Positions 5,969 to 37,248 of a DNA stretch of 64,000 nt are shown here, one piece after another. The notes under the pieces are model-generated. The model saw nothing but the letters and a program-made list of their open reading frames with translations. It made no database searches and had not been told where the DNA came from. The DNA lies in NCBI GenBank assembly GCA_964574685.1, contig CAZNOI010000005.1:1493-65492 (forward strand). Reading direction: 5' to 3'. Source of the DNA: an uncultured Dehalococcoidia bacterium. Its GTDB lineage: Bacteria; Chloroflexota; Dehalococcoidia; SZUA-161. A program made the translations under genes and the position numbers. Position 1 is the first letter of the stretch; the number at the start of each line of letters is the position of its first letter.

Positions 5969-7840
5969 CTACTCGCCCCAGATATCGGCGATGTATTCCT
6001 CCAGGCCAAGCCCCCGCAGCTTGTCGGGCGTGGGCTTGCCTGTCTCCCTGTCCCAGCCTCGTAGCTCATAGTACTTGTTAAGCATCGCGGGCAGATTCTC
6101 GTTGACCTTGCCGGCGGCCGGCCCCTCTGTCAAGGGCTCCTCCAGTAGCCGCGGCGGGAGCGTATCGTCAGACCTGGTCAGTCCTTCCCGGACATTGAAC
6201 ACTCTCGCGAGATTGTATGCCCTCTCGCCTATCTCGGCAAGGTCTTTGAAGGTGAAACCTTGTCCCAGGCAGTGCTCCACAAGCTTCACCCATTCCCCGG
6301 AATCGAGGCAGAACCCCATGAACTTGCAGGCTCCCAGCGTATCGAGTGCCGTCATGACGTTCTCCAGATCGACCAGTACATGCACCTCTTCGGGGTCGGC
6401 CACGAGGGGGTCTCTGATCTGGCTGTCGGGAATCACGAGGAACGGGATATCGAGGAACGTCGGACCCTGGATGTAGGCCGTTATGTGGTCGCCGCCCCGG
6501 TTGGCGACTGCATACGCCAGGCCGGTAATCTGGACCGCCCTTGAATCGTACGCGGGCAGCTCCAGACCCTTGACATTCATCGCGAATCTGTCACTGCCCT
6601 TGTCCAGCTTCTGCGCCATCCTGCGCGTTCCTTCTGCGAGCAGGTCCCCGATCCCATCGCGCCTGGCTATCCTGTGGATAAGCTCGATGACAACGTCGGG
6701 ATCGCCGAATCTGAGTTCCAGGCCATCCGTGTCCTGCGCGGTCAGAATCCCCTTCTCATAGCACTCGATGGCAAAGGCGATCGTGCTGCCGGTGGATATC
6801 GTGTCCATGCCGTAGTCATCGCAGAGATAGTGCCCCCAGGTGATGGCCTCCATGTCGGTGATGTGGCACTGGCCTCCGAGAGTCCCGACGGTCTCGTATT
6901 CTGGGCCTTCGCCACTCTTGCCGGAGTACTTCCCCTCCCTGATTGTCGTGCGTCTGCCGCACCTGAGAGGGCACGCGAAGCAGCCCATGGGCTCCTCGAG
7001 GACCTTTTCACTGAGGGCCTGCGCGTTTATCTCCTCGATTTCGGGGTAGACGCTTGTCTGCCAGTTCTTCGTCGGGAAACCGCCGCGCACGTTGACGAGG
7101 TCGATGACGGCGTTTGTCCCGAAGGTCTCCAGTGTGACCTTGAACATGGACTGGTCGAGAAGCTCGAACTGCTTCTTCGCAGTCGCCGAGAAGGCTTCCG
7201 GGTCGGCAATCCGCACCTGCTTCTTGCCCAGCACGGCGATTGCCTTGAGCTTCTTCGAGCCCATCACTGCCCCGCCGCCGCATCGGCCCGCAGCCCTGTG
7301 CAGGTCGTTCATTATGCTTGCGTATCTGACCAGGTTCTCACCGGCGATGCCTATGCAGTCCACATTGAACTTGTTTCCCAGCTCCTCCCTGATGAGCCGC
7401 GTCGTCTCGGACACGCTCTTTCCCCACAGGTGGGATGCGTCCCGAATCTCGGCTCCCTCTTCTGTGATCACGAGGTAGACGGGCCTATCGGCTGCTCCAC
7501 GGAAGATAATTCCGTCGTATCCGGTCTTCTTGAAATCGACTCCCCAGAACCCGGCCGAGTTCGATTGAGCCCACAGGTTGGTAAGGGGTGACTTGAATAC
7601 CCAATTGAACCGGCCTGTGCTCGGCGCCACGGTACCCGTGAGTGCACCGGTCATGAGGATGAGTTCGTTGTCCGGGCCAAGCGGCTCGGCGCCCTTTGGC
7701 ACGTCTCGATAAAGGTAGTGCGTCGCCAGGCCCGCTCCAGTGAGGTACTTGTCGAACAGTTCCTGGCGTATCTCTTCCTCCGCGACGCTTCCCCGAGAGA
7801 GATCGACTCTCAGGAGCTTTCCGTGTCCTCCGTACATCAT
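5969..7840 (-). CDS. aor: Aldehyde:ferredoxin oxidoreductase (tungsten/molybdopterin family)
   Basis: GKLLRVDLS, KSPLT, AAGRCGGGAVMGSKKLKAI, CFACPLRC, GPEYET, DTLGACKF, YYELRGW. Confidence 0.93.
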   Translation of the reverse strand: MMYGGHGKLLRVDLSRGSVAEEEIRQELFDKYLTGAGLATHYLYRDVPKGAEPLGPDNELILMTGALTGTVAPSTGRFNWVFKSPLTNLWAQSNSAGFWGVDFKKTGYDGIIFRGAADRPVYLVITEEGAEIRDASHLWGKSVSETTRLIREELGNKFNVDCIGIAGENLVRYASIMNDLHRAAGRCGGGAVMGSKKLKAIAVLGKKQVRIADPEAFSATAKKQFELLDQSMFKVTLETFGTNAVIDLVNVRGGFPTKNWQTSVYPEIEEINAQALSEKVLEEPMGCFACPLRCGRRTTIREGKYSGKSGEGPEYETVGTLGGQCHITDMEAITWGHYLCDDYGMDTISTGSTIAFAIECYEKGILTAQDTDGLELRFGDPDVVIELIHRIARRDGIGDLLAEGTRRMAQKLDKGSDRFAMNVKGLELPAYDSRAVQITGLAYAVANRGGDHITAYIQGPTFLDIPFLVIPDSQIRDPLVADPEEVHVLVDLENVMTALDTLGACKFMGFCLDSGEWVKLVEHCLGQGFTFKDLAEIGERAYNLARVFNVREGLTRSDDTLPPRLLEEPLTEGPAAGKVNENLPAMLNKYYELRGWDRETGKPTPDKLRGLGLEEYIADIWGE

Positions 7841-24467: not shown

Positions 24468-26063
24468 CTAGAGAGGCACCAGCGAGTGCTTCCGCCAGGG
24501 AGTGGTAGGCTCCAGCTTCTTGGACAGCCGCTCGAAGGTGTTGATCAGGACGGGCCGCGTCTTGCGCGGGTCGATGATGTCGTCAGCCCCCTGGACACCG
24601 GCCAGGTGGTAGGCCGTAGCGAACTGGTCATGGACCACCTGCATCTTGTCCTGGCGCACCTGCTCGGGGTTGTCGACGGCCGCGATCTCCGAGCCGTACA
24701 GTGCATCCGCTGAGCGCTCGTAGCCCTCGACCCGCATATCGGCGGTCGGCCAGGCATACACGGCGTCCACACCCATTCTCTCGGTCCCCATGAGCAGGCG
24801 GGCCGCTCCCCAGCACCGCCTTATGTATACGGTGATCATCGGGGTTGTCGCCTCACAGATGGCGAACACCGGCTTGGCGGCGTTGCGCTCCAGGCCGTCC
24901 CTGTTCTGCTCCTGCTCGACGTCGGGCAGGAAGCCGGGGCTGTCCACCAGGAAGACGATGGGTATGTTGTAGCAGTCGCAGAACCGGACAAACCTCGCCT
25001 GCTTGTCGCAGCTATACACAGTCAGGGCGCCCTCCTGCACCGCCGGGTTGTTGGCGACAATGCCGACCGGCTGCCCTGCGAGCCTGGCGAAGCCTATCAG
25101 CATGCTCGGCGCGTACAGTGCCTGAAGCTCGAAGAAATGGCCGTTGTCCACTACGGAGGCGATGACCTCGTGCATGTCGTACGGCTTCGATACGTCGGGC
25201 GGCACGATGTCCAGCAGCTTGTCGTCGGCGCGTCTCGGGTCGTCGCCCGTGTCCGCAAGGGGCGCCTTCTCCTTCCAGTTGGAAGGAAGGAAGCTCAGCA
25301 GCTCGCGGCACTTCTCGATGGCCTCCTCGTCGCTGTCCACCAGGATATCGTTGGAGCCGGTGGTCTCCGAATGGAGCAGCGCGCCGCCGATCTCCTCCTC
25401 GGTCACATCGACGAACGTGACAGCCTTGAGGATTGGCGGTGACGCCACCGACATGAAGGCGATGTTGCGGCGCATGATGACGAAGTCGGCCATAATCGGC
25501 GAGTACGCCGACCCCGCGTAGCAGGGGCCGAGCATCAGGCTGATGTGGGGCACGACTCCTGACATCAGCGGTGGGTAGTACATGAAGCCGCCGCCCCCGC
25601 CGACCGGGCTCCCCCTTACCGGGACCTTGAACCCGCCCGTGCCGAACAGGTCATGGATTCGAATCGCGCCGGAATCTACCATACCCACGAGGGGTATGCC
25701 TTCCTCCATCGCCTGCTCCATGGCGCGGGCAACTTTGGAGTTCTGGATGGTGGACTGCGTGCCGGCCAGCACTGTGAAGTCGTGGGCGTAGGAGTAGACC
25801 AGCCGCCCGTTGACCTCGCCGTAGCCTACTATGACCGAGTCCCTGGGCAACTCCCTCTGGTCGATGTCGAATCCGGTCTTCATCGGCTGCGTCCAGATGC
25901 CGATCTCTTGGAATGTGCCCGGATCGTACAGCTTCTGAATCCGCTCCCAGGCGGTGAGCTTCCCCTTGCCGTGCTGCTTCTCCGTTTCCGCAGGCCCGCC
26001 GCCTGGCTCCAGGCGCTTTCTGTTCTCCTCCAGCTTCTTGAGAAGGTCTCGCATATCAGCCAT
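24468..26063 (-). CDS. Acyl-CoA carboxylase carboxyltransferase subunit, paralog 2
   Basis: GKLTAWERI, GPCYAGSAYSP, FVRFCDCYNIP, IIDPRKTR. Confidence 0.92.
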   Translation of the reverse strand: MADMRDLLKKLEENRKRLEPGGGPAETEKQHGKGKLTAWERIQKLYDPGTFQEIGIWTQPMKTGFDIDQRELPRDSVIVGYGEVNGRLVYSYAHDFTVLAGTQSTIQNSKVARAMEQAMEEGIPLVGMVDSGAIRIHDLFGTGGFKVPVRGSPVGGGGGFMYYPPLMSGVVPHISLMLGPCYAGSAYSPIMADFVIMRRNIAFMSVASPPILKAVTFVDVTEEEIGGALLHSETTGSNDILVDSDEEAIEKCRELLSFLPSNWKEKAPLADTGDDPRRADDKLLDIVPPDVSKPYDMHEVIASVVDNGHFFELQALYAPSMLIGFARLAGQPVGIVANNPAVQEGALTVYSCDKQARFVRFCDCYNIPIVFLVDSPGFLPDVEQEQNRDGLERNAAKPVFAICEATTPMITVYIRRCWGAARLLMGTERMGVDAVYAWPTADMRVEGYERSADALYGSEIAAVDNPEQVRQDKMQVVHDQFATAYHLAGVQGADDIIDPRKTRPVLINTFERLSKKLEPTTPWRKHSLVPL

Positions 26064-26078
26064 CTGTTTCCTCCTGGA

Positions 26079-27626
26079 CTACAGCCGGATGTTCTCGTGC
26101 TTTCTCTTGGGCCTGCCCTCGTCTCTGTGCTCCAGCGCCTTCAGCGCCTTGATAAGGAACGAGCGCGTATCTCTCGGATCGAGGAAGTCCTGCGCCCACT
26201 CGCGCTCCAGCGACTTGAACTTCTCCTGCATCTCGGCGACCCGTTTGGCCTGCTGCTCCTCTTTCTTCTTCGGGTCCTCGATCGCCGCGAACTCGCGCTT
26301 ATAGATGATCGAGACGGCGCCCTCCGCGCCCATCAGGCCTCGCTCGACTGTCGGCCAGGCCACGTCGAGGTCGCCGCCGAGGGTGGTACCGGGCATGCCG
26401 AGCTGGCCGCCGCCGTAAAGCTTGCGTATAGCGATGGTGATCTGCGGCACCGTGGCCTCGACGTTGGAGAATACCAGCTTGCAGCCGTGCCGGATCAGCC
26501 CCCTGGTCTCCTCGTCCACCGCGGGCAGGAACGCGGGCGTATCGGCGAGCCAGATGAGGGGGATGTTGAACGCGTCGCAGAAGCGGGCAAACCAGGCCAT
26601 CTTGTCCGCCGCGTCCAGCGTCAGCGAGCCGCCCATAGCCTTGGGATTGTTCGCGATGATGCCAGCCGTCTTGCCGTCCAGCCGGACGAAGCCTGTAATC
26701 AGGTTGTTCGCCCACTGCTTCTTGAGTTCGAGGAACTCGCCATTATCCGCGACGAGAGATATCAGCTTCTGCATATCGTAGGGCTTCATGGCGTCGAACG
26801 GAACGAGGCTCAGAAGCTCCTCTTCCCTGCGGTCAGGGTCGTCGCCGGTGTCCACGACAGGCAGGGTTTTCTTGTCGTTGCTGAGGGGCAGGTAGCTGAG
26901 CAACTGCCTGCAGGTCTCGATGCACTCCTCGTCACCCTTCGCCAGGAGGTCACAACATCCGGTCTTCTTGGAGTGAACCGAGGAGTCCCCGACCTCCATG
27001 GGGGTCTTGTCTTCAGGCGGCGGTGCAACGTGCATGAAGCTGGTCTTCCTGGTCATGAAGACGAAGTCTGACAACTGCGCCGTGATCGCGAGTTCGCCCG
27101 AGCAGGGGCCCATAATCATCGCGATCTGCGGAATGACGCCCGACGCCATGGTCTGGAAGTGGGCGAAGGACTCGGGAGAGTAGAAGCGATAGTACTGAAG
27201 GGCGTCCTCCACCCTGGCGCCCTGCGAGTCGATGATGCCCACGATGGGCACGCGCGCGTGAACGGCCTTCTCCATGACCATAGCGATCTTGCGGGAATGC
27301 ATGTTCGCCAGGGTACCGCCCATAACGGTCGCATCCTGAGCCCAGAGGAACACGGGCCGACCGTGGACTTCGCCGTATCCCACAGCCACGCCGTCCGCCG
27401 AGCCCTCCTGGTTGTCGATGGCGAAGCCTGTGGCCAGGGGAGTGCCCCATATGTCCAGTTCCGCGAAGGTGCCGGGGTCGAGCAGCCTGTCGATCCTCTC
27501 GCGGGCGGTGAGCTTGCCCTCCTCATGCTGCTTCTCGATGGCCTCGGGGCCGCCGCCCTGCCTCAGCATATTGCGAAGCTCATCGATCTCGGCGAGACGC
27601 TTCTGCATCAGCTCCAGGTCGTCCAT
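26079..27626 (-). CDS. Acyl-CoA carboxylase carboxyltransferase subunit, paralog 3 (close paralog of 18802..20343)
   Basis: Long shared stretches with paralog 1, e.g. ADTPAFLPAVDEETRGLIRHGCKLVFSNVE and FKSLEREWAQDF. Confidence 0.92.
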   Translation of the reverse strand: MDDLELMQKRLAEIDELRNMLRQGGGPEAIEKQHEEGKLTARERIDRLLDPGTFAELDIWGTPLATGFAIDNQEGSADGVAVGYGEVHGRPVFLWAQDATVMGGTLANMHSRKIAMVMEKAVHARVPIVGIIDSQGARVEDALQYYRFYSPESFAHFQTMASGVIPQIAMIMGPCSGELAITAQLSDFVFMTRKTSFMHVAPPPEDKTPMEVGDSSVHSKKTGCCDLLAKGDEECIETCRQLLSYLPLSNDKKTLPVVDTGDDPDRREEELLSLVPFDAMKPYDMQKLISLVADNGEFLELKKQWANNLITGFVRLDGKTAGIIANNPKAMGGSLTLDAADKMAWFARFCDAFNIPLIWLADTPAFLPAVDEETRGLIRHGCKLVFSNVEATVPQITIAIRKLYGGGQLGMPGTTLGGDLDVAWPTVERGLMGAEGAVSIIYKREFAAIEDPKKKEEQQAKRVAEMQEKFKSLEREWAQDFLDPRDTRSFLIKALKALEHRDEGRPKRKHENIRL

Positions 27627-27710
27627 AGTGCCTCCTTAAAGACGCGTAGAAAGCATTCTACCGGCTGGTGGGGGGTATCGTCAACTCCGCTGCGAGTGAT
27701 GAGTCTCGCC

Positions 27711-27813
27711 GACGACCCCTGCGCGCACGCGCGCTGGTTTGACGCAATGCCCGCGACAGGTCACCTGGCCAGCCGGGACGACCCCTGCGCGCACGCGCGC
27801 TGGTTTGACGCAA
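27711..27813. repeat. Two identical 37-bp direct repeats separated by 29 bp
   Basis: GACGACCCCTGCGCGCACGCGCGCTGGTTTGACGCAA at 27711-27747 and 27777-27813. Confidence 0.95.
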
Positions 27814-27834
27814 AACTGAGGCAAATGGTATACT
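27805..27834 (+). promoter_or_regulatory. Sigma70-type promoter with extended -10
   Basis: TTGACG-18 bp-TATACT with TG at the extended -10 position; the -35 lies inside the second 37-bp repeat. Confidence 0.6.
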
Positions 27835-27897
27835 GATGCTCGATTCCGCCCGATTCCCCGTCATCGAAAGGCACAGGCAAGAAAGGAGCAGTCTATA

Positions 27898-29058
27898 ATG
27901 TCCGGTTTCGGCTTCTCCGAGGAACAGGAGAGACTACAGGAGGAAGTGAAGCGGTTCGCGCAGAGGGAGCTTGCACCCGGTGCACTGGCCAGAAGCAAGA
28001 TGGGCCCCGAAGAGCTGCACGAGAACCTGAAGGACATCGACAAGAAGATAGTCGAGCTTGGATGGACGAAGATTAACGTGCCCGAGAAGTATGGAGGGTA
28101 TCCACTCGGCCACGTGGAGATAGGTATCATTCACGAGGAAGTGCACAAAGTGGATCCGACGGTCGAGGCTGTTGGGGGTATGGAGGCTACCAGCGCCCTG
28201 CTACAGACGCTGCCCCAAGATGTGCAGGATGAATGGTTCCCGGCCCTCATCAATCGCGACCAACGGCATTCATTCGGCTTCACTGAATCGGCGGCCGGTT
28301 CGGATGCGGCAGGCATCGTGACCAAAGCCGTCAGGGATGGGGATGAATACGTCATCAACGGCGAGAAGACACCTCTTCCGGGCGCGACCGTAGCTGATGT
28401 CGTCAGCATATCCACCAAGACAGACCCGAACGCGGGATTCAAGGGCGTCAGCCTGTTCTGGATTCCCACCAACTTTCCCGGCGTGACTATCCAGCATCTC
28501 CCCTGGATGGGCAACACCAGCCTGTATCCCAGCTTCGTCACATTTGACGACGTGCGCGTACCTGCCAAGTACCGCGAGGGCGAAGAGGGTATGGGCTTCT
28601 ACACGGTCATGGGCACGCTTGACTGGCTGCGAATCATAGTGGCTCTGACCTGTCTCGCCAGGGCGCAGGCCTCGATCCAGGACGCAATGGAGTGGTCGAA
28701 GGAGCGCAAGACCTTCGGCAGGGCGATAGCGAGCTACCAAGGGGTATCCTTCGACATCGCGGAGCACTACACCGCGGTCGAGGCGGCGAGGCTGCTTTGC
28801 TATCGGACTCTCTGGCTGAAGGATCAGGGCAAGCCGCACACCGTCGAGTCCTCGATGGCGAAGTGGTTCAGTGTCGAGGTCTCGCTGCAGTGCATCAAGG
28901 ATATGATGGTCCTCATCGGCCATCCGGGGTACAGCACGGAACACCCGATCTCTCAGCGGCTCAGGGACGTGATCGGCTATCAGCTCGGTGACGGCCCTCC
29001 GCAGATCCAGAAGATGATCATTGCCAGGCTACTCATCGGCAAGGCTGTGGTCGGCTAG
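27898..29058 (+). CDS. Acyl-CoA dehydrogenase
   Basis: FGFTESAAGSDAA, INGEK, RKTFGR.I..YQG, SSMAK, GHPGYS; ends QLGDGPPQIQ. Confidence 0.92.
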   Translation: MSGFGFSEEQERLQEEVKRFAQRELAPGALARSKMGPEELHENLKDIDKKIVELGWTKINVPEKYGGYPLGHVEIGIIHEEVHKVDPTVEAVGGMEATSALLQTLPQDVQDEWFPALINRDQRHSFGFTESAAGSDAAGIVTKAVRDGDEYVINGEKTPLPGATVADVVSISTKTDPNAGFKGVSLFWIPTNFPGVTIQHLPWMGNTSLYPSFVTFDDVRVPAKYREGEEGMGFYTVMGTLDWLRIIVALTCLARAQASIQDAMEWSKERKTFGRAIASYQGVSFDIAEHYTAVEAARLLCYRTLWLKDQGKPHTVESSMAKWFSVEVSLQCIKDMMVLIGHPGYSTEHPISQRLRDVIGYQLGDGPPQIQKMIIARLLIGKAVVG

Positions 29059-29090
29059 CGGGCAAGACTGCTGCAGATTACTGAAGTAAT

Positions 29091-29123
29091 GCGGAGCCCC
29101 GTGCCAGCGGCACGGGGCTCCGC
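29091..29123. terminator. Perfect 14-bp hairpin between convergent genes; probable bidirectional terminator
   Basis: GCGGAGCCCCGTGC-CAGCG-GCACGGGGCTCCGC. Confidence 0.65.
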
Positions 29124-29145
29124 TCTATCTCAGGGCCTTCTTGGA

Positions 29146-29886
29146 CTAATGGCCGAGGTCTCCCGCCTCGTAGAGAACCGCAGTAGCTGCTATCAGGCCG
29201 GCGGTCTCGGCGCGGAGAATGCGGTTTCCCATGGTCACCGGCACTATGCCGGAAGCGGTCGCCCTCTCAATTTCCTCAAGCGTGAAGCCGCCCTCCGGAC
29301 CCACGAACAGACCGACCTCGCCAGCTTCCCGGATTGCGGCAGCACTGAGCGCCCGCTTCAGCGAAGTGGCTGTCTCGCCCTCCCACAGGATGAATGCGGG
29401 ATGGGGGGCCATACTGCAGCCCTCGGTGAACGACACTGCCTCTTGAATTGGGGGCAACACGGCCCTTCTGGACTGCTGGGCCGCCTCCAGCACTATACTT
29501 GACCAGCGCTGCAGGCGATTCGCGCTCGGCCTCCGGGCCACGCATCTCTCCGATATCAGCGGCGCGAACGCGTATATACCAAGCTCGGTGCATTTCTGCA
29601 GCACGAGTTCTAGGCTGTCGCCTTTGAGAAGCGCCTGATAGAGGACGATCCTGAGATTCGGCTCATTCGGGCAGGGCGACCTGCCCAGGACCGTTCCTTC
29701 TCCCTCGTGCCGTCGCAGCGAATCCAATCGTACCGTGTATTCCAGTCCGCTGCCGTCAAGCAGGACAATGCTATCTCCGGGACCGAGGCGAAGTACGTTT
29801 CTGAGGCGATGGACGAGCTCAGGGCCCATGCTGACCCTGTTTTCCACGATGCTGTCCGGTGGAACGAAGAAACGGTGCCGGCTCAC
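29146..29886 (-). CDS. rsmE: 16S rRNA m3U1498 methyltransferase
   Basis: HRLRNVLRL, LQKCTELG, EAAQQSRR, FVGPEGGF, RILRAETA; next to dnaJ. Confidence 0.95.
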   Translation of the reverse strand: MSRHRFFVPPDSIVENRVSMGPELVHRLRNVLRLGPGDSIVLLDGSGLEYTVRLDSLRRHEGEGTVLGRSPCPNEPNLRIVLYQALLKGDSLELVLQKCTELGIYAFAPLISERCVARRPSANRLQRWSSIVLEAAQQSRRAVLPPIQEAVSFTEGCSMAPHPAFILWEGETATSLKRALSAAAIREAGEVGLFVGPEGGFTLEEIERATASGIVPVTMGNRILRAETAGLIAATAVLYEAGDLGH

Positions 29887-29909
29887 GGTGAAGCTCCGGC
29901 CGATTGGGA

Positions 29910-31031
29910 CTAGCCGGCGAACGAGTCCCTGATCTTGTCGAAGAGACCTTTGTCTTCTCCCGGCATGTTGGCCTCACCCAGGCTCCCTGCGAGTTCGCGG
30001 AACAGCTTCTTCTGCTTGGGATCGAGCGACTCAGGGGTAACGACGTGCAGCCTGACCAGTTGGTCGCCCCTTCCTTCCCTGCGGAGGTGCGGCACGCCCT
30101 TCTCCTTCAGGCGGAAGACCTTGCCGTGCTGAGTGCCTGCCGGTATCTTCAGCTTTTCCTTCCCGTCGACCGTGGGCACTTCCAACTCGTCCCCCAGGGC
30201 CGCCTGAGCGAAGTTGATGGGCAGGTCGTAGAGTATGTCGTCGCCTTCCCGTTTGAAGGACTTGTGCTTCTTGACGGACAAGGTTACATAGAGGTTGCCG
30301 GGACCGCCGCCCCTCGTCCCCGCGTCCCCCTCGCCCGAAAGCCTGATCTGGGTGTTGCTGTCTACGCCGGGGGGCATCTTGACGGATATCTTGCGGGAGG
30401 CACGCTCCCTGCCCTTGCCGCCGCAATGCTTGCAGGGATCGGTCACAAGCTTGCCTTCCCCTCTGCAGGTGGCGCAGGTGGCGAGATTGACGAACTGCCC
30501 GAAGATGCTCCTCTGTGCCCGGCGTACCTGGCCCGACCCCTTGCACTCGGGACACTGCTCCGGCTGGCTTCCAAGCTCACATCGGGTACCGTGACAGGCC
30601 GAGCAACGCTCGCTGCGCACGATCTCCATTTCCTTGTCGCAGCCGAACACGGCTTCTTCGAAAGTGATCTCCAGGCCGTAGTTGAGGTCGGCTCCGCGCT
30701 GGGGTCCGGCCCGTCTCGCAGTACCACCGGCGCCGCCGAAGAACGCGTCGAATATGTCACCGATTCCTCCGAAGTCGAAGCCGTCGAATCCCCTGGCGCC
30801 GAAGCCGTGGGCACCCGCGTGGCCGAAGCGGTCATAGGCGGCGCGCTTCTGGGAGTCCTTAAGGGTCTCGTAGGCCTCGGTAACCTCCTTGAAGGACTCA
30901 GCCGCGCCGTGATTCCTGTTGTGATCGGGGTGGTACTTGAAGGCCAGCTTCCGATAGGCCCTCTTGATGTCCTCCTCGGAGGCATTCCTGTCGACGCCGA
31001 GAACTTCGTAATAGTCTCTCTTGGTTGCCAT
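29910..31031 (-). CDS. dnaJ: Molecular chaperone DnaJ
   Basis: J domain with HPD, G/F region, four CxxCxGxG-type repeats, C-terminal domain. Confidence 0.98.
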
Positions 31032-31193
31032 GGCCTGACCCTGGAGTCGTCGCTAAACCTCAATTATAGAGCAGGCATGTGGATGACACAATACGTGCAG
31101 CACCATATTCCTATCGCAAGTGTCGCTGTATGCTCGAGGGGCGGAGCGCTCGATCCGCGGACGATGCTCCGCTCGGGGGTGTCCGAGGAAATG

Positions 31194-31224
31194 TGGAACA
31201 CCCCGAGGTTCTCGGGGTGTTCCA
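31194..31224. terminator. Perfect 14-bp hairpin downstream of the RiPP cluster
   Basis: TGGAACACCCCGAG-GTT-CTCGGGGTGTTCCA; a second weaker hairpin lies at about 31141-31173. Confidence 0.5.
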
Positions 31225-31396
31225 TCTGAGGTCTGTTCCAGCTACGAAGCCGCTTCCCAGCGCCTGACTCAGCAGCCAGTTGCACCATCAGTTCTGGGTA
31301 TGGTGTAGGAGGCGAGAAGTTGTCGTCTTCAGGCCTCCGGCGGATTGCCAATGCTTCTGGCCCTCCGCTGGTTCTTCACCGGGTTCTAAGGTTCTC

Positions 31397-31540
31397 CTAT
31401 CTGCAGCATAAGCCGAAGAACGGCTGCAAGACGTGGATAGGCCCCTGATCGTCACCACCGGCTGGACTGCCGGAGGCGACCAGAGTCTGCGGCTGCACCG
31501 TCTCGGTCACCATCTTCGGCTTCTCGTACGTCTTCCTCAT
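31397..31540 (-). CDS. Putative RiPP precursor peptide, 47 aa
   Basis: Hand translation MRKTYEKPKMVTETVQPQTLVASGSPAGGDDQGPIHVLQPFFGLCCR. Strong RBS GGAGGGAGGTG, YxxP leader motif, directly downstream of RRE and rSAM genes. Below the ORF-track size cut-off. Confidence 0.85.
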   Translation of the reverse strand: MRKTYEKPKMVTETVQPQTLVASGSPAGGDDQGPIHVLQPFFGLCCR

Positions 31541-32582
31541 GTCTCACCTCCCTCCGGGCGAGGATTTCGCTCCTTATGGCTGCGTTTTGGCAGGCGCTGG
31601 GAGCCGGCTTCGTCAGTTCTCCTGTTTCGGTGAGGTTTCGCCCTGTACACCGATTGCAGTTCTCCCTCAGGTCGCAGTCATTGCATTGATGGAAATCGCT
31701 CTCCTCCAGTCGTCTCAGAAGGGTAAGCTCGGGTATAGACGAACCGGACCAGATGTCCGCGAAGGACTGCTGTCTCAAGTTGCCCAATTTGAGCGGCATC
31801 ATGATGCAGGGGAAGACATCGCCGTTGGGCGCGACGGAGCATGTGGCGCGTCCCGCTTTGCAGATGCCGGTGCTCTCAGGACTGTCATCCTTCGGGACCA
31901 TCCAGTCAGCGTCATAGTACTCGTGTAGCTGTGCCGGGGTTAGTCTGTGGTCCCTCGGGTGCGACTCCCCGCTCTTCGTGGGGGCCAGATCGTAGCTGAA
32001 TTCGACCGCGATGTTCATGGTGTCCGCCAGCTTCTGGATCTCGGACGCTTCATGCACGTTGTCGGACATAAGCACAGCCTGCAGCTTCACCGGTATACGG
32101 CGCTGCTGGAGCAGGTCTATGCCGCGCAGAGTCTCCAGGAGAGAGCCGGGACGACCGGTGATATGGTCGTGTGTCCGGCTCGTGACACCGTAGACACTCA
32201 TGCCCACGAAGAGGGGCCTGAGCCAGGATATCTCCTCAGCAATCCTGGGTGTTATGAGGGTTCCGTTGGTCAGAAGCATGAGTATGAAACCCTGCCGGCG
32301 TGCGTAATGGGCAATGTCCAGGAAGTCCTTCCGTACCAGCGGCTCTCCTCCTGTGATCAGCAGATAAAGGCAGCCAGCGGACCTGAGCTGGTCGATGACG
32401 TTGTGCCACTCCTGAAGTGACAGCTCGTCCCCGTACGGAGCGTCCACATAGCAGTGCCTGCACCTGAGGTTGCACCTGTATGTGATCTCCAGTGCCGCCT
32501 GAAGAGGCACCAGGTTCTCCGCCGCCCTGGACATAACCTGATGCAGCAGCGGCTGCATCTCCGAATCGCAATAGGGGTCCAT
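31452..32582 (-). CDS. Radical SAM protein with SPASM domain (peptide maturase type)
   Basis: CNLRCRHC, ITGGEPL, SPASM cysteines CKAG...FPC...CNDC...CNRC...C. Confidence 0.93.
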   Translation of the reverse strand: MDPYCDSEMQPLLHQVMSRAAENLVPLQAALEITYRCNLRCRHCYVDAPYGDELSLQEWHNVIDQLRSAGCLYLLITGGEPLVRKDFLDIAHYARRQGFILMLLTNGTLITPRIAEEISWLRPLFVGMSVYGVTSRTHDHITGRPGSLLETLRGIDLLQQRRIPVKLQAVLMSDNVHEASEIQKLADTMNIAVEFSYDLAPTKSGESHPRDHRLTPAQLHEYYDADWMVPKDDSPESTGICKAGRATCSVAPNGDVFPCIMMPLKLGNLRQQSFADIWSGSSIPELTLLRRLEESDFHQCNDCDLRENCNRCTGRNLTETGELTKPAPSACQNAAIRSEILARREVRHEEDVREAEDGDRDGAAADSGRLRQSSRW

Positions 32583-32585
32583 ACG

Positions 32586-32870
32586 CTAATGCTCCCTTGG
32601 GGACGTGCTCGCGGTGGCCAGGTTGGCTTCGAGAAGCTCGGAGCAGAACTGGTCTACGTCAGCCTGCGCCTCTTCCGGTGCGACCTCGAAGCGCTGCGAG
32701 AGAGCGGCCGCTATCTCGTCCGACAACCGGGTACCGTCAGCCAGCAGCCAAATGTAGCTGGCGGTCTCGTTGAGCATACGGATAGTGCAGTCGTTTTCTC
32801 CTACTATCACCACTTCGCCCGCGATATCCCGCCAGATCACTTCATCGCTTCTGGATACGTAGCAGCCCAT
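32586..32870 (-). CDS. PqqD-family RiPP recognition element
   Basis: LNETASYIWLLADG..L..IAAALSQRFEV..E.A..DV..F..EL. Confidence 0.9.
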   Translation of the reverse strand: MGCYVSRSDEVIWRDIAGEVVIVGENDCTIRMLNETASYIWLLADGTRLSDEIAAALSQRFEVAPEEAQADVDQFCSELLEANLATASTSPREH

Positions 32871-32872
32871 AC

Positions 32873-33793
32873 TCAGCCCACCTCCATATCGAAACAGTTC
32901 TCTACAGCTTCCCAGAACGTGGTGTCCGGCCTGAAGCTGAGCTCATATGCCGGCACGCCGGCGGCGATGGCCGCGCTCAGGTCGGCGCGCTCAGGCAGGT
33001 ATTCCAGTCGGCGAATGTCGAACAGGGGGGATGAATCCAGCACCTGTGCCAGAAGGCCGCGGTAGGCTTCCCCGCCGTTGAGCCGTCTGAGTTCCACTCT
33101 GTCTGCCTGTCTGAGCAGGAACGCAGCCGACAGCGTCTCGGAATCGGGAGAGCGCTCTGCGACGCCGCCGTCGAAAGGCGTCCCCACTATGCGGATGCCG
33201 GAACCGTTCCTGCCGACGAGCACCGTCTCGTCGTTCAATACCTTTCGGCCACCGGCCAGGGATGCCACCGTTGTCTTGCCAATGCCCGATGGGCCGGTGA
33301 ACAGGTACGCCCGCCCATCGGAGATGACTCCGCAGCCGTGCATCAGGTAGGCGTCAGGCGGCTCGTCTCTCAGCCACTTGAATATCGAATAGTAAAGTCC
33401 GCGCAACAGGTGGTTCATCAGCTTGTAGTTTGCCTGCGCGGCGAACAGCTCTCTCTCCGTCTCGACGCGTACCTGCCGCATCTTCCTGTCGAGATAGCAG
33501 TCGATGAGCCAGGGATGAGTAAAGAATCTGCTCCCGTCGCAGTGCGCTTCGATATTGCGTATGACTTCGCTGACCTCGCCGGCGGTGAGGTAATCGTGGA
33601 GATTGAGGTCGATAGTATACTCCGGTGGTCTCTCCACCAGAAAGGACCTGTAGGATGCGGCCATACGGTCCTGTATGCCCGGGTCGCTGCAGCGCACACC
33701 TACGCATGCGTCGCCGACAGCCAGGCTGAGATAGCCGTCTGAACGCACGTCGCTGTAGCCCGGTGATTGCGAAGGGTGACTCATTGGGACCAT
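32873..33793 (-). CDS. HPr-kinase-related P-loop protein
   Basis: MHGCGV, LFTGPSGIGKTT, VLNDE, GTPF; motif order typical of the HprK-related kinases found in RiPP loci. Confidence 0.8.
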   Translation of the reverse strand: MVPMSHPSQSPGYSDVRSDGYLSLAVGDACVGVRCSDPGIQDRMAASYRSFLVERPPEYTIDLNLHDYLTAGEVSEVIRNIEAHCDGSRFFTHPWLIDCYLDRKMRQVRVETERELFAAQANYKLMNHLLRGLYYSIFKWLRDEPPDAYLMHGCGVISDGRAYLFTGPSGIGKTTVASLAGGRKVLNDETVLVGRNGSGIRIVGTPFDGGVAERSPDSETLSAAFLLRQADRVELRRLNGGEAYRGLLAQVLDSSPLFDIRRLEYLPERADLSAAIAAGVPAYELSFRPDTTFWEAVENCFDMEVG

Positions 33794-33946
33794 GTCAGGG
33801 CCGGTGGGAGGTCGGAATGGGGCCGTCTCTGTCCTGCAAGTCTGATTCTATGTCGACTGTGTTAGCAGCCGGTATGAACAGGGTTAGAGTCCGGTTCAAG
33901 CGGCCTCCCAATCGTCGCCGGCGTTTCCCTGTGATATACTGCAGTC

Positions 33947-35029
33947 GTGGCCGCGAAAGAGAAGGACGCCTACTCTGTACTTGCCGAGAGGCACGGCTTC
34001 GAGTCATCGGAGCCCTATCTCCGGGTGCTCCAATTCCTCATGACGCCGGAACAGGCTGACCTCGTGACGCTCCTGCCCGGCTCACCGGAGGATGTCGCCG
34101 ACAAGGCCGGGATGGGAGTAGCAGCGGCGAGAGAGACCATCGAGCTCCTGGTCAGGAAAGGCGTGGTGGTGCCGGTCGACTTCAGGATGGGCGACCGGTA
34201 CCAGTTCTGCAAGTACGCGGAGCGATTGTGGGAGGTGAGCGAGTCCCTGATGGGGCTGGACATATACACGGAGGACGAATACCGGGAGCTGTTCCGCCTC
34301 TGGGAGGAGTGGAAGAAGACCGACTACGCCGACATGACAGCTGAGAGGTGGCTCAACCTCAAGGCGATGGGCATACACGGCCTGAGAATCATTCCCGCTT
34401 ACCGCGCAATACTGGACATGCCGGACCTACTGCCACAGGAAGACGTCCGGGAGATGGTCAGAGTGCAGCCGCTCATCACAGTTGTCTCGTGTTCATGCCG
34501 GAAGCACAAGAAGATGATCGGGAGCCCCTGCAGGAAGTCCGACGCCGATGCCAATTGCCTTCAGTTCGCGAAGTCGGCAGAGTATTCTCTGAGCCGGGGT
34601 CATGGACGTCGGATATCGACCGATGAGGCTGTGTCAATACTCGAGATGAACGAGGAGGACGGGCTGGTACATCAGTGGATGAACCACAGCAAGGTGGAGG
34701 CAGCACCGCCCTATGCCCTGTGCAGTTGCTGCCGGTGCTGCTGCACTGTGTGGCATGCCGCCGATATCAGGAGCGTGCCCAACGATGCGGTCTTCGCCAG
34801 GAGCCGCTACGAGGCGAGGGTCGACGCTTGTGAGTGCATCGGCTGCGGGCTCTGCATGGACCGCTGCCAGTTCGACGCCATAAACATGGTGCCGGTCGAG
34901 GGTTCCACCGAAACGAGAGCTGTGGTCGACCCGGAGAAGTGCTGGGGCTGCGGGGTGTGCACGCTTGTCTGCGAACCCGGGGCGCTCGGGATGCACCTTG
35001 TCAGGCCGCCGGAGCACATCCCCGCCTGA
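33947..35029 (+). CDS. 4Fe-4S dicluster protein with N-terminal HTH-like region
   Basis: CSCR, CSCCRCCC, CIGCGLCMDRCQF, CWGCGVCTLVC. Confidence 0.85.
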   Translation: MAAKEKDAYSVLAERHGFESSEPYLRVLQFLMTPEQADLVTLLPGSPEDVADKAGMGVAAARETIELLVRKGVVVPVDFRMGDRYQFCKYAERLWEVSESLMGLDIYTEDEYRELFRLWEEWKKTDYADMTAERWLNLKAMGIHGLRIIPAYRAILDMPDLLPQEDVREMVRVQPLITVVSCSCRKHKKMIGSPCRKSDADANCLQFAKSAEYSLSRGHGRRISTDEAVSILEMNEEDGLVHQWMNHSKVEAAPPYALCSCCRCCCTVWHAADIRSVPNDAVFARSRYEARVDACECIGCGLCMDRCQFDAINMVPVEGSTETRAVVDPEKCWGCGVCTLVCEPGALGMHLVRPPEHIPA

Positions 35030-35060
35030 AAAACGACGCCCGTCCTAGGAGGTGGGCATC

Positions 35061-35675
35061 ATGAGTGAAGCTGCGTTTGATTACCCGGCCAATCTCACGG
35101 TGGACTACCCGGACAGAGACCTTGACAGGGTGAGCACCCTGTTCAGGATCTTCACAATCATTCCTATCGCGATAGTCATCGGTTTCCTTATGTGGGGCAT
35201 TGCGGACGACGACGGACGCTACTTCGGTGCTTTCGTCGTGGCGCCGACGGCGCTGATGATACTGTTCCGTCAGAAGTACCCGATGTGGTGGTTCGACTGG
35301 AACCTGGGGCTTGCGCGTTTCGGGGGGCGCGTGGCATCGTATCTGGCCTGCATGACTGATGTCTATCCCTCCACGGACGAAGAGCAGGCGGTTCACATCG
35401 ACATCGTGTATCCCGATGTCCAGGCCGAACTGAAGCGATGGCTGCCGTTGGTGAAATGGCTTCTGGCCATCCCGCACTATGTAGCCCTCTTCTTCCTCAC
35501 TGTCGCAGCCGTAGTCATCGTGATAATCTGCTGGTTCGTGATACTCTTCACGAGACGCTATCCGAGGGATATGTTCGACTTCGTTGTCGGTGTCCTGAGG
35601 TGGCACCTGCGGGTATGGGCCTACGCCTTCCTGCTGACGACCGACAAGTATCCGCCGTTCAGGCTCGTCAGCTAG
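35061..35675 (+). CDS. DUF4389-like membrane protein
   Basis: Duplicated unit F...YP...FD...G..R...RV..Y.....TD.YP. Confidence 0.75.
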   Translation: MSEAAFDYPANLTVDYPDRDLDRVSTLFRIFTIIPIAIVIGFLMWGIADDDGRYFGAFVVAPTALMILFRQKYPMWWFDWNLGLARFGGRVASYLACMTDVYPSTDEEQAVHIDIVYPDVQAELKRWLPLVKWLLAIPHYVALFFLTVAAVVIVIICWFVILFTRRYPRDMFDFVVGVLRWHLRVWAYAFLLTTDKYPPFRLVS

Positions 35676-35711
35676 GGGGGCCGGGGAATCGGAGGTGTCT
35701 GCCGGATCTGG

Positions 35712-35939
35712 TCAGTCCGTATCGGCCTCTTCGTCGAGTTGCTGCATGATGGACAGGATGTCCGGTGAGGTGTCGAGAAAGCGGTTGAGCCGGACCGGCT
35801 GCAACCGCTGACCGCATTCCGGGCAGACGAAAGTCTCCTCGTCAGCCTCGTCTGCCACCACATGAGTCCGGTAGCAGTACACCTCGCGGCAGCCCTCGCA
35901 GTACAGGCCGCCGTATGTGAATTCGATCTCGTCGGTCAT
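35712..35939 (-). CDS. Small zinc-ribbon protein
   Basis: CEGC...CPECG pairs and an acidic tail; 75 aa. Confidence 0.65.
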   Translation of the reverse strand: MTDEIEFTYGGLYCEGCREVYCYRTHVVADEADEETFVCPECGQRLQPVRLNRFLDTSPDILSIMQQLDEEADTD

Positions 35940-36126
35940 CCGTCAACCGGCTGGCTCGGGTTGCTCCAGCATCAGGGATGCTATCACAGGCGCGCCTCTG
36001 CGGGCAACTTCGCCCGTGAACTGACCGATGTCACGGGTTTTCAATCTTTTCTGTTGAGGCGTTATGACTTCTTCATTCGTGGCGGAGTATGATTGAGATG
36101 GCGCGGGACGTGCGCGGGGAACGAGT

Positions 36127-37248
36127 ATGCCTGGACGTGGCATCCCGGTAGGCAGGTACTTCGGAATCTCGGTGAACCTCCACTACTCGTGGTTCATTGT
36201 CTTCCTGCTCGTTACTGTCCTCCTGGCAACTGCGTATTTCCCGCAGGGCTATCCCGACTGGTCGACAGCTACCTACTGGGGCATCGGCGTCGTTACCAGC
36301 ATTCTCTTCTTCATTTCGGTGCTGGCACACGAACTGGCGCATAGCGTGGTAGCCCGCTCCGCAGGGATACCGGTGAGGGTCATTACGCTGTTCATATTCG
36401 GGGGTGTGTCGCGTATCGAGAAGGAGCCCGATGAGCCGGGCGTCGAGTTGAGAGTAGCCCTGGCTGGTCCGCTTACCAGCCTTGCTATCAGCGGTGTCTT
36501 CTGGGCCATATGGGCCGGGGTCGCGGGCATCAATGAGCCGGTGGGCGCTCTGGCGTTCTGGCTGGGCTTCATCAATGCCGTTTTGGCGGCGTTCAACCTG
36601 ATACCAGGTTTTCCTCTGGACGGGGGCAGAGTCCTGCGGGCCGTGCTCTGGTGGCGTTCGCGCAGCCTGCTTAACGCCACGAAGACCGCCTCGAACGTTG
36701 GAAGAGGAGTCGGGTACCTGTTCATATTCGCCGGTATAGGTCTCATCTTCTGGGGCTATCTCCTCAACGGCGTGTGGATTGCCTTCATAGGCTGGTTCCT
36801 GCAGAACGCAGCGGGAGCAAGCTACCGACAGATGGCTCTGCAGAGCGTGCTTCGCGGTCATAAGGTCAGCGAGGTCATGACGCGCGACTGTCCGTCGATC
36901 AGCGCGGACATGTCGCTGGAGCAACTGATAAACGAATACGTGCTGGGTAAAGGCCGCCGTTGCTTCCCGGTCGTTGATGACGGGCGGGTGCTCGGCCTGG
37001 CAACCGTAAATGATCTGCGCAAGGCCCCTCGTGAGTCATGGCACTCGCGGAGCGTATCGGAGGTTATGACACCATATGACCATCTTCGATGGGTTGGGCC
37101 CGGTGATGAATTGACCAGCGCCTTGCAGACAATGACGTCGGAAGACGTGAATCAGCTTCCGGTAATGGAGAACGGCAGAATCGTGGGCATGGTAGGGCGC
37201 GACAGTCTCCTGTCGTTCATACAGCTTCGCAGTGCTCTCGGAGTCTGA
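36127..37248 (+). CDS. Site-2 protease (M50) with CBS pair
   Basis: HELAH, NLIPGFPLDGGR, two C-terminal CBS domains. Confidence 0.95.
   Translation: MPGRGIPVGRYFGISVNLHYSWFIVFLLVTVLLATAYFPQGYPDWSTATYWGIGVVTSILFFISVLAHELAHSVVARSAGIPVRVITLFIFGGVSRIEKEPDEPGVELRVALAGPLTSLAISGVFWAIWAGVAGINEPVGALAFWLGFINAVLAAFNLIPGFPLDGGRVLRAVLWWRSRSLLNATKTASNVGRGVGYLFIFAGIGLIFWGYLLNGVWIAFIGWFLQNAAGASYRQMALQSVLRGHKVSEVMTRDCPSISADMSLEQLINEYVLGKGRRCFPVVDDGRVLGLATVNDLRKAPRESWHSRSVSEVMTPYDHLRWVGPGDELTSALQTMTSEDVNQLPVMENGRIVGMVGRDSLLSFIQLRSALGV

Follow-up and report, generated by a model that had tools for sequence, protein, structure and literature searches.

The window analyzed here is a 64-kb stretch of contig CAZNOI010000005.1, which belongs to an uncultured Dehalococcoidia bacterium. 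Its minus strand carries a short cassette made up of an ScmC-like P-loop protein, a discrete PqqD-family protein, and a radical SAM/SPASM enzyme. A 47-codon open reading frame (ORF) begins within the 3' end of the radical SAM gene and is the subject of this analysis. A radical SAM/SPASM enzyme, a PqqD chaperone, and a small precursor are together a known kind of system. The ORF is a genuine conserved gene that is linked to the cassette. Judged by its sequence, its product is an ordinary CC-subtype member of a family with the core motif PFFGLC(PP)C. The features of the locus are collected in Table 1, where lengths are in amino acids (aa), nucleotides (nt), or base pairs (bp). L-numbers (e.g., L001) denote the compared loci and P-numbers (e.g., P0121) denote homologous proteins.

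Table 1. Features at the peptide locus, ordered by position in the window
Feature	Position	Strand	Basis or remark
Perfect GC-rich hairpin, 14 bp, just after arm 2	31194-31224	minus	T-tract weak in window
Inverted-repeat arm 2, 131 nt past the peptide stop	31244-31266	minus	23 nt
Conserved non-coding 3' region	31267-31396	minus	aligned with L163 and L002; forms local hairpins, e.g., GGAGGCnUGAAG...CUUCUCGCCUCC
Peptide gene (probable precursor), 47 aa, ATG start	31397-31540	minus	ORF listing; MRKTYEKPKMVTETVQPQTLVASGSPAGGDDQGPIHVLQPFFGLCCR
Radical SAM/SPASM enzyme, 376 aa, presumed maturase	31452-32582	minus	PF04055 8.3e-23, PF13186 1.4e-12
Shine-Dalgarno sequence of the peptide gene, GGAGGGAGG (GGAGGGAGGTGA)	31544-31555	minus	in radical SAM codons R-R-E-V-R
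Inverted-repeat arm 1, inside the radical SAM ORF	31591-31613	minus	23 nt; codons L-T-K-P-A-P-S-A-C
Discrete PqqD-family protein, 94 aa, presumed leader-binding chaperone (RiPP recognition element, RRE; RiPP, ribosomally synthesized peptide with post-translational modifications)	32586-32870	minus	PF05402 2.5e-17
ScmC-like, HprK-related P-loop protein, 306 aa	32873-33793	minus	Walker A GPSGIGKTT, invariant LNDE (alignment A4)
Ferredoxin-domain protein, 360 aa, C-terminal 2x[4Fe-4S]	33947-35029	plus, divergent	Fer4 families

The peptide ORF and the radical SAM ORF overlap by 89 nt (31452-31540), with the radical SAM frame at +2 relative to the peptide. The mRNA 5' of the peptide start reads CGGAGGGAGGTGAGAC-ATG, and the GGAGG core of the Shine-Dalgarno sequence ends 6 nt 5' of the ATG. 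Other loci have such a signal 5' of the start codon as well, an identical GGAGGGAGGTGAGAC in L002 and L163 and GGGAGGTGAGAC in L169. An earlier reading of this DNA from its letters alone (the sequence-only reading) had placed the start of a 47-aa ORF 89 nt inside the radical SAM gene, in a different frame, with a ribosome-binding site inside the radical SAM coding sequence. Both placements are borne out by the ORF listing and by the position of the Shine-Dalgarno sequence. The overlap is not an assembly error, since positions 31250-31750 are matched with zero differences and zero indels by two independent Logan contigs of 28x and 46x depth, both of which come from a microbial-mat metagenome. 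The named homologues and the origin of the sequencing runs point to a Chloroflexota bacterium of a hypersaline mat as the likely host.

The encoded peptide is composed of the leader MRKTYEKPKMVTETVQ, the variable linker PQTLVASGSPAGGDDQ, and the conserved core GPIHVLQPFFGLCCR. The size of the ORF carries no significance by itself, as the surrounding 11 kb contains 121 ORFs of at least 30 aa; the ORF is significant because it is conserved. No second copy of the peptide was found in the window.

The peptide family and its reading frame

Loci that encode the closest homologues of the radical SAM enzyme (46-61% identity) were compared by six-frame inspection. All 11 independent clade loci that reach past the radical SAM gene have a homologous peptide at its 3' end. 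The loci with the peptide are L001, L002, L163/164, L165/166, L167, L168, L170, L171, L172, and, in convergent orientation, L169. The PqqD-family gene adjoins the radical SAM gene in all clade loci, and the gene order ScmC-PqqD-radical SAM-peptide is conserved. The sequence-only reading had taken the hidden ORF for a precursor gene and expected comparable small ORFs beside orthologous radical SAM genes. Their presence at every locus that extends far enough supports this proposal.

Database searches recover the same family. A single-sequence search of 5.8e9 proteins with the window peptide identified P0121, a protein of 45 aa (E=1.3e-5). A word-indexed search with a profile of seven peptides found 55 called proteins, and a profile of 50 peptides (alignment A3) has 87 matches among all 1.84e9 cluster representatives, 26 of them at E<=1e-10. 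Four of the profile-found peptides were traced to their contigs. All four lie beside an ScmC-PqqD-radical SAM/SPASM cassette, three of them directly after the radical SAM gene.

Family statistics were computed on 134 sequences. The leader consensus is E-x-Y-E-K-P-x-[MI]-x-[TS]-E-x-[IV]-E-x-G and the core consensus is G-P-[IV]-x-Q-L-[QEN]-P-F-F-G-L-C-(P-P)-C-x, joined by a variable linker that is rich in Gly, Ser, and Pro. The residues of the P-F-F-G-L segment are conserved at 70-92%. Cys45 is invariant and is preceded by a conserved Phe pair, three and four residues upstream. A C-terminal Cys pair is present in 118 of the 134 sequences (60 CC, 51 CPPC), and in 78 of these 118 the last Cys is followed by exactly one residue. 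The motif YxxP...FFGxCC put forward from the sequence alone is thus near the true consensus, except that in roughly half of the family the ending is CPPC, not CC.

Several members depart from this plan. Tandem double-leader forms, in which a full precursor is joined in frame to a degenerate first copy that has only the leader, with Cys or Ser in place of Tyr, are found at L165/L166:6035-6280 and in P0122, P0146, P0163, P0180, P0210, and P0240. P0182 has two core-like motifs instead of a double leader. A further protein of 354 aa, P0214, is a weak match to the peptide profile and contains seven repeats of KKIQVARPRFGFCGVAGSNCKR between acidic spacers. It resembles a multi-core precursor of eukaryotic type and probably has no relation to the family.

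The family has no name in current annotation. Pfam and NCBIfam scans of the window peptide, ten relatives, and all 50 members of alignment A3 assign no family, and every called copy is named 'hypothetical protein'. Literature searches on the core motif and on the cassette names found no paper with either. Gene calling was followed at five loci that were reached via the radical SAM protein, a sample that is therefore unbiased regarding the peptide call. The peptide is called correctly in L168, called in L165 as one 81-aa protein in which a full copy is fused to a degenerate copy of the leader, cut to 38 aa from an internal Met start in L002, and missed in L163/164 and L167. The sequence-only reading had expected gene callers to drop the peptide and the family to be systematically unannotated. 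The first expectation holds for the long-overlap lineage (L002 truncated, L163/164 missed) and for L167, but the peptide is called in many assemblies with a 4-nt overlap. The second is correct as regards names and family models, but not as regards calling.

Selection in the overlap follows the peptide frame and not the radical SAM tail. Between the window and L002, 35 of the 144 positions of the peptide gene differ, and by codon position of the peptide frame these are 9 first, 6 second, and 20 third positions. Within the 89-nt overlap, the same comparison gives 6 synonymous and 9 non-synonymous codon changes in the peptide frame and 2 synonymous and 15 non-synonymous changes in the radical SAM frame. 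GC content at the first, second, and third codon positions is 0.54/0.47/0.81 for the peptide ORF and 0.83/0.55/0.52 for the tail frame, while the real genes of the window have about 0.60/0.45/0.75-0.81. The tail, REVRHEEDVREAEDGDRDGAAADSGRLRQSSRW, is made up of the last 30 codons of the radical SAM gene (31452-31541) and agrees with the sequence given for it in the sequence-only reading. Homologues of the enzyme are mostly ~345 aa long and cover ~90% of the 376-aa query, and residues 361-376 have a predicted local distance difference test (pLDDT) score below 55 in the AlphaFold2 (AF2) model. Because of the substitutions, the GC signature, the homologue length, and the low pLDDT, the tail is regarded as read-on without selection of its own. 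The description of this tail as read-through in the sequence-only reading agrees with the length of the homologues, the GC content by codon position, and the third-position changes in the peptide frame.

The arrangement of stop and start codons differs among the loci. The radical SAM stop and the peptide start share the tetranucleotide ATGA in L001, L165, L171, and L172. In L167 this sequence is ATAA, which keeps the radical SAM stop and leaves ATA as the peptide start. The peptide start lies 50 nt after the Cys codon of the conserved PAPSAC motif in L001, L165, and L167; the corresponding spacing for the window, L002, L163, and L168 is 49 or 52 nt. The spacing of 49 or 52 nt shifts the radical SAM gene by one frame, and so it misses the TGA of ATGA. 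The resulting overlaps are 89 nt in the window and in L002, 17 nt in L163, and 47 nt in L168. In L163, the peptide codons CCA-TAT-GAG provide aTA-TGA in the radical SAM frame, which gives the 17-nt overlap. The window uses TAC for this Tyr, and its radical SAM frame therefore runs on to a TGA within GGT-GGT-GAC, which gives the 89-nt overlap.

In the ancestral layout, as read here, the radical SAM stop and the peptide start shared ATGA. The radical SAM gene of the window lineage is shifted by one frame, skips that stop, and reads on, for a length set by which synonymous codons the peptide gene uses. On this reading, the tail of 30 aa is tolerated junk and the 89-nt overlap an accident of one lineage. 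Termination-reinitiation coupling is unlikely in the window, where the radical SAM stop lies 89 nt past the peptide start. For this reason, translation of the window peptide probably starts independently, at the strong ribosome-binding site of its own gene.

The inverted repeat around the peptide gene

The peptide gene is enclosed by an inverted repeat, termed the bracket here, whose first arm lies in the radical SAM gene and whose second arm lies past the peptide stop. The window arms are 91% complementary and 324 nt apart. Across loci, arm length ranges from 16 to 33 nt and the spacing between arms from 270 to 406 nt. In 8 of 10 loci the bracket ranks first among the inverted repeats, namely in the window, L001, L002 (22 of 22 positions paired), L163, L165, L167 (33 nt), L168, and L171. 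Its score is reached by 0 of 500 shuffles in each of seven loci. The bracket is absent from L170, L172, and L169 and essentially absent from the distant superfamily. It is specific to the PFFGLC clade. In L172, an integrase gene follows the peptide.

The repeat exists and co-varies. Arm 2 tracks the synonymous changes of arm 1 at the Thr (ACG/ACC/ACA), Lys (AAG/AAA), and Pro (CCG/CCA) codons. In an alignment of the arms from eight loci, 83% of cells pair, versus 28-41% when the partner is slid. Double changes are observed in five pairs (12 cells), a number equaled by 0 of 500 shuffles, and the covariation score of 0.176 is reached by 1 of 500. When segments of 406 nt (window) and 491 nt (L165) are folded, the bracket helix closes both the minimum free energy and the centroid fold (z-scores -5.3 and -8.4). 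The window helix is 9+15+7 bp in the predicted fold.

The region between the peptide stop and arm 2 is non-coding, and the three closest loci share conserved blocks in it that fold into hairpins. RNAalifold places 39 pairs in it, 5 of them with compensatory changes, and Rfam has no match anywhere in the window. Counterparts of the conserved 3' stretch are found at 31215-31396 of the window, L163:6187-6365, and L002:3988-4165, with a partial second copy at L002:6754-6797. The stretch moves with the cassette and not with dnaJ. A second small ORF (MAIRRRxED...) in this stretch was considered and ruled out, as a 1-nt indel in L002 breaks the frame and the nucleotides stay conserved.

Perfect GC-rich hairpins of differing sequence occupy the same site after arm 2 in L002 (4165-4200), L163 (6364-6397, with a T-run after it), and L001 (1173-1222). 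The hairpin of the window is probably the operon terminator. A scan of 30900-34300 for consensus promoters and terminators found nothing and did not flag this hairpin. None of the resources searched describes the peptide family, the bracket repeat, or the pairing of these peptides with ScmC-type cassettes.

Cassette enzymes and the proposed role of the peptide

The radical SAM/SPASM enzyme possesses invariant cysteines at positions 37, 41, and 44 (CX3CX2C) and at 241, 259, 300, 303, 309, and 312 (SPASM) among 35 homologues. No equivalog cut-off is reached in the NCBIfam scan of this protein, where the best partial matches are AhbD, NirJ, MftC, ScmE, StsB, AlbA, GeoRSP, and PqqE. Among the full-length matches MftC is the best, with 138.8 bits across residues 26-314, and the StsB and AlbA models align along the full length of the enzyme. 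The AF2 model has a pLDDT of 87. The nearest solved structures are SkfB and PqqE by sequence and SkfB, PqqE, BlsE, SuiB, and anSME by fold (Foldseek).

The ScmC-like protein appears related to HprK-related kinases at the superfamily level only. It matches the ScmC model TIGR04249 with 22.7 bits (E=5.4e-5, cut-off 125) over its C-terminal half only, and the HprK-related kinase models HprK_rel_B and HprK_rel_A at E ~1e-3. Its scores against TIGR04352 and TIGR04355 (cut-off 200) are 16.6 and 17.7 bits. Among ten orthologues, eight match HprK_rel_B and seven match ScmC, all under the cut-offs, with best HprK-model E-values of 1.1e-7 and 4.1e-6. The orthologues bear the precomputed Pfam assignment PF27840 ScmC, and a profile of the protein gave generic P-loop matches only among PDB sequences. 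The protein probably uses ATP. Related cassettes are frequently larger, with a gene for an S24-like peptidase immediately upstream of the ScmC-like gene, one for an NTP_transf_5 protein, and in some cases ABC transporter genes. Neither the S24-like peptidase nor the NTP_transf_5 gene was found in the 64-kb window.

The peptide is most likely the modification substrate of the ScmC-like, PqqD, and radical SAM/SPASM proteins. PqqD-like domains hold RiPP leaders as a beta-strand and pass the core to the modifying enzyme (PMC7470986). Here, the leader Y-E-K-P-x-[MI]-x-[TS]-E-x-[IV]-E would bind the discrete PqqD-family protein as a beta-strand, and PqqD would present the core G-P-[IV]-x-x-L-x-P-F-F-G-L-C-C-x to the radical SAM/SPASM enzyme. 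The enzyme would then most likely make one or two intramolecular crosslinks at the invariant Cys or the Cys pair. The best guess for these crosslinks is thioethers to the adjacent Phe-Phe/Gly-Leu segment. The ScmC-like P-loop protein may add an ATP-dependent step, either phosphorylation or assistance, and in relatives the S24-like peptidase probably removes the leader.

Thioether chemistry within P-F-F-G-L-C-(PP)-C is favored because Cys45 is invariant, the second Cys is near-invariant, the Phe pair lies upstream, and the characterized enzymes closest in sequence include SkfB, StsB, and AlbA, which form thioethers. It is a tentative assignment, held with somewhat less than even confidence, and Phe as the thioether acceptor is held with less confidence again. 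C-C crosslinking or a cofactor-type transformation is possible. MftC is the best full-length match, and in its invariance the core equals the cores of PqqA and MftA.

The reading preferred here has four parts: the ORF is a genuine precursor gene, its peptide is the substrate of the three upstream operon genes, the overlap is accidental, and the bracket is an mRNA stalk. Its probability is estimated at roughly 0.75. Several observations weigh against it. The structures nearest to the radical SAM enzyme are thioether, C-C bond-forming, epimerase, and non-RiPP enzymes, so the fold picks no reaction, and neither a family model (NCBIfam, Pfam) nor a paper found in the literature searches ties the cassette proteins to a chemistry. 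The single-sequence AF2 model of the ScmC-like protein has a pLDDT of 33, which leaves its fold unconfirmed, and a leader peptidase or exporter was not found near the window cassette. The peptide of L163, a close relative, has a single Cys and the degenerate core ...SQLFGFCFR. The L167 peptide (5978-6127) has ATA where the others have ATG, which may reflect a decaying copy, a rare start, or a sequencing error. Finally, mismatches of the G.U (13) and A.C (11) type are equally common in the arms of the bracket and do not separate an RNA role from a DNA role.

Other accounts of the peptide differ widely in probability. If the ORF were a chance open frame in GC-rich DNA, its apparent conservation would come only from selection on the C-terminal tail of the radical SAM enzyme. 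The abundance of ORFs around the locus and the similarity of the tails in the window and L002 fit such an origin. However, most lineages overlap by 4 nt only and place a peptide with a nearly invariant core in otherwise non-coding DNA, most radical SAM homologues lack the tail, and both the substitution pattern and the third-position GC content follow the peptide frame. As conservation holds at loci without the overlap, a chance origin is effectively refuted. It is also improbable that the peptide stays unmodified and serves as an accessory or regulatory protein (e.g., a Cys-pair metal or cluster partner of the radical SAM enzyme) or as a coupling ORF, for which being translated would count for more than the product. 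The CC or CPPC pair could serve as ligand of a metal or cluster, ATGA couples translation of the gene to that of the radical SAM gene in most lineages, and the window lineage lacks a peptidase or exporter. Yet the discrete PqqD-family chaperone is always present, and the peptide is built like a RiPP precursor, with a leader and a C-terminal core that are conserved and a linker that varies. Distant cassettes retain the leader but exchange the core, as precursors do, and a core of 12 residues would not stay near-invariant in an ORF that served for coupling alone. A modified peptide that becomes an intracellular cofactor or metal ligand like pyrroloquinoline quinone (PQQ) or mycofactocin, without secretion and with no thioether required, is a more serious candidate, albeit an unlikely one. 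The core is almost invariant across radical SAM lineages that are only 35-60% identical, as are the cores of PqqA and MftA. The minimal window cassette stands among housekeeping genes and beside the ferredoxin-domain protein, and the MftC match points the same way. Against a cofactor, the ABC exporters and S24-like peptidase of some relatives suit a processed, exported peptide, tailoring enzymes of the MftD/E/F or PqqB/C type are absent downstream, and the MftC and PqqE cut-offs are not reached.

For the bracket, the leading reading is an RNA stalk of the kind found around rRNAs, to which we give slightly less than an even chance. Either a double-strand RNase would cut this stalk, or the stalk would hold together the two ends of a peptide-only transcript, and precursor would thereby exceed enzyme. 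The main rival to the stalk is a role in DNA, in which an intragenic inverton flips the peptide gene, truncates the radical SAM gene, and acts as a phase switch. The length and spacing of the arms are inverton-like, the mismatch spectrum has no strand bias, and covariation is also expected of paired recombination sites. Inversion is nonetheless quite unlikely. The cassette has no conserved recombinase gene nearby, all eight loci show the same orientation, and the Logan contigs show no joints. The window and L163 keep a 2-nt mid-arm mismatch, which is poor for a site-specific crossover but normal for an RNA helix. The terminator-like hairpin directly after arm 2 places this arm at the 3' end of the transcript. 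The convergent peptides of L169, the only locus of this kind, were considered as an inverted state of the bracket; this was ruled out, as they have their own ribosome-binding site and terminator and no bracket.

Under the preferred reading, cassettes of ScmC, PqqD, and radical SAM/SPASM genes that are listed only as 'radical SAM/SPASM domain-containing protein' and 'hypothetical protein' gain their missing substrate. With four genes and one peptide of 47 aa the chemistry is open to direct testing, and the A3 profile could annotate more than 130 peptides as well as copies that gene callers missed. A core so close to invariant suggests that the peptide has a conserved target or acts like a cofactor, and not that it is an arms-race antibiotic. 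The locus is also a clean example of how a shift by one frame at a stop/start junction hides a real gene under the meaningless extension of its neighbor. The bracket, if it acts in RNA, would be an undescribed way of setting the ratio of precursor to enzyme in a RiPP operon. The broadest form of the proposal is an unrecognised and widespread family of radical SAM-modified peptides, or of a peptide-derived cofactor, whose expression would be set by a novel device. In this device a co-varying RNA stalk, with its 5' arm in the codons of the maturase motif LTKPAPSAC and its 3' arm at the transcript end, would excise or clamp a precursor-only mRNA and uncouple peptide from enzyme amounts; as a whole, this is doubtful.

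Comparison with known systems and neighboring genes

RRE-dependent radical SAM/SPASM systems for RiPPs are generally recognized by CX3CX2C and SPASM cysteines, a PqqD-like recognition element (fused or discrete), and a short adjacent precursor with leader and core. All of these are found in the window cassette, where the recognition element is discrete. The most similar named system is SynChlorMet (SCM), which also combines an ScmC-type P-loop protein, a small PqqD-family protein, and PqqE-like radical SAM/SPASM proteins, and the window proteins match TIGR04248-TIGR04251 weakly. SCM has two radical SAM genes, ScmE and ScmF, whereas the window cassette has one. The scores stay far below the cut-offs, at 22.7 versus 125 bits for ScmC, 29.9 versus 100 bits for ScmD (TIGR04248), and 127.4 (ScmE) and 82.1 (ScmF) versus 400 bits each for the radical SAM enzyme. 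The cognate peptide is identified in the window cassette; to our knowledge, the TIGRFAM description of SCM gives no precursor. By these scores and gene counts, the window cassette resembles SCM but falls outside it on each membership criterion. GeoRSP is likewise distinct, with 104.7 bits for the radical SAM enzyme (TIGR04303, cut-off 400) and 22.5 bits for PqqD (TIGR04302, cut-off 100).

Sactipeptide and ranthipeptide systems (SkfA/SkfB, AlbA, CteA/CteB, PapA/PapB) share with the window a radical SAM maturase with a SPASM or twitch domain, a PqqD-like element, and a short precursor with Cys residues in the core, and SkfB is the closest solved structure to the window enzyme by both sequence and fold. 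These classes are defined by a link between a Cys sulfur and an alpha, beta, or gamma carbon of a second residue, of which the window sequence shows the donor. In these systems the recognition element is an N-terminal domain, whereas in the window it is a separate protein. The window Cys residues are at the extreme C-terminus, after every possible acceptor, and an HprK-related P-loop protein is part of the conserved core set. The window core, with its proposed crosslink, is nearly invariant rather than hypervariable.

Mycofactocin and PQQ are made from a tiny peptide with an invariant C-terminal motif by a discrete PqqD-family chaperone and a radical SAM/SPASM enzyme, and the tiny genes mftA and pqqA are often missed by gene callers. 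The window differs in that its peptide follows the enzyme, whereas theirs precedes it, and in its motif, PFFGLC(PP)C (ending FFGLCCR) instead of GVY or E-x3-Y. MftD/E/F and PqqB/C genes are lacking. The window enzyme scores 138.8 bits against MftC (TIGR03962, cut-off 265) and 104.2 bits against PqqE (cut-off 381), and the window PqqD protein scores 29 bits against PqqD (cut-off 46).

Lasso peptide leaders contain a YxxPxL motif that is bound by the PqqD-like B1 protein. The window leader Y-E-K-P-x-[MI] fits this motif and a discrete PqqD protein is present. This segment is the putative recognition sequence. HprK-like kinases of the paeninodin type offer a second parallel, with the HprK-related P-loop protein of the window and the NTP_transf_5 nucleotidyltransferase of its relatives. 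Lasso kinases phosphorylate a C-terminal Ser, and many peptides of the distant relatives end in Gly-Ser, a Ser of the kind phosphorylated there. The window peptide, in contrast, has no C-terminal Ser. The cassette has a radical SAM enzyme and lacks the cyclase (Asn-synthetase-like) and the B2 transglutaminase-like protease of lasso systems.

The closest parallels to the bracket are the RNase III stalks of rRNA precursors and the long-range pairing in MS2 by which translation of the replicase is coupled to that of the coat gene. These share with it a flanking helix of ~22-31 bp around a loop of 270-400 nt, and one window arm likewise lies in an upstream translated ORF. RNase III stalks are characterized by a conserved long helix (about two turns or more) formed from flanking sequences, and such a helix is predicted at the window locus. 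Unlike these stalks, the predicted window helix encloses a small precursor-peptide mRNA. The literature search found no report of a processing stalk in a RiPP operon or of RNase III processing of a RiPP precursor mRNA.

The wider superfamily comprises homologues of the radical SAM/SPASM enzyme from many phyla at 30-39% identity (L003-L162). These are followed by peptides with a Y-x-K-P-x-L leader and other Cys-rich cores, e.g., at L007:7053, L015:7102, L017:7110, L027:7048, L054:4616, and L091:4452. The cores typically read ...EEAVLxxGCK...C...C..GS or ...ILSACS...C...C.... Genes for PqqD and ScmC-like proteins frequently lie close to these loci, as do genes for S24-like peptidase and NTP_transf_5. 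No model in the NCBIfam scan matches the peptides of ten such relatives.

The ferredoxin-domain protein is a candidate electron donor or regulator for the radical SAM enzyme. It stands beside the cassette in L002 (248-1348) and L163 (2452-3531) at 80-82% identity, and a homologue that is 27% identical is found 3 kb from the cassette in L171 (5210-6316).

The gene order around the cassette (24468-37248) is conserved with L163/L164. Shared with L163 are a carboxyltransferase, an acyl-CoA dehydrogenase, an RsmE-type methyltransferase, DnaJ, the cassette, the ferredoxin-domain protein, a DUF4389 protein, a Zn-ribbon protein, and an M50/CBS peptidase, in this order. The cassette proteins of the window and L163 are only about 60% identical. 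In the window, the carboxyltransferase is present as tandem paralogues at 24468-26063 and 26079-27626.

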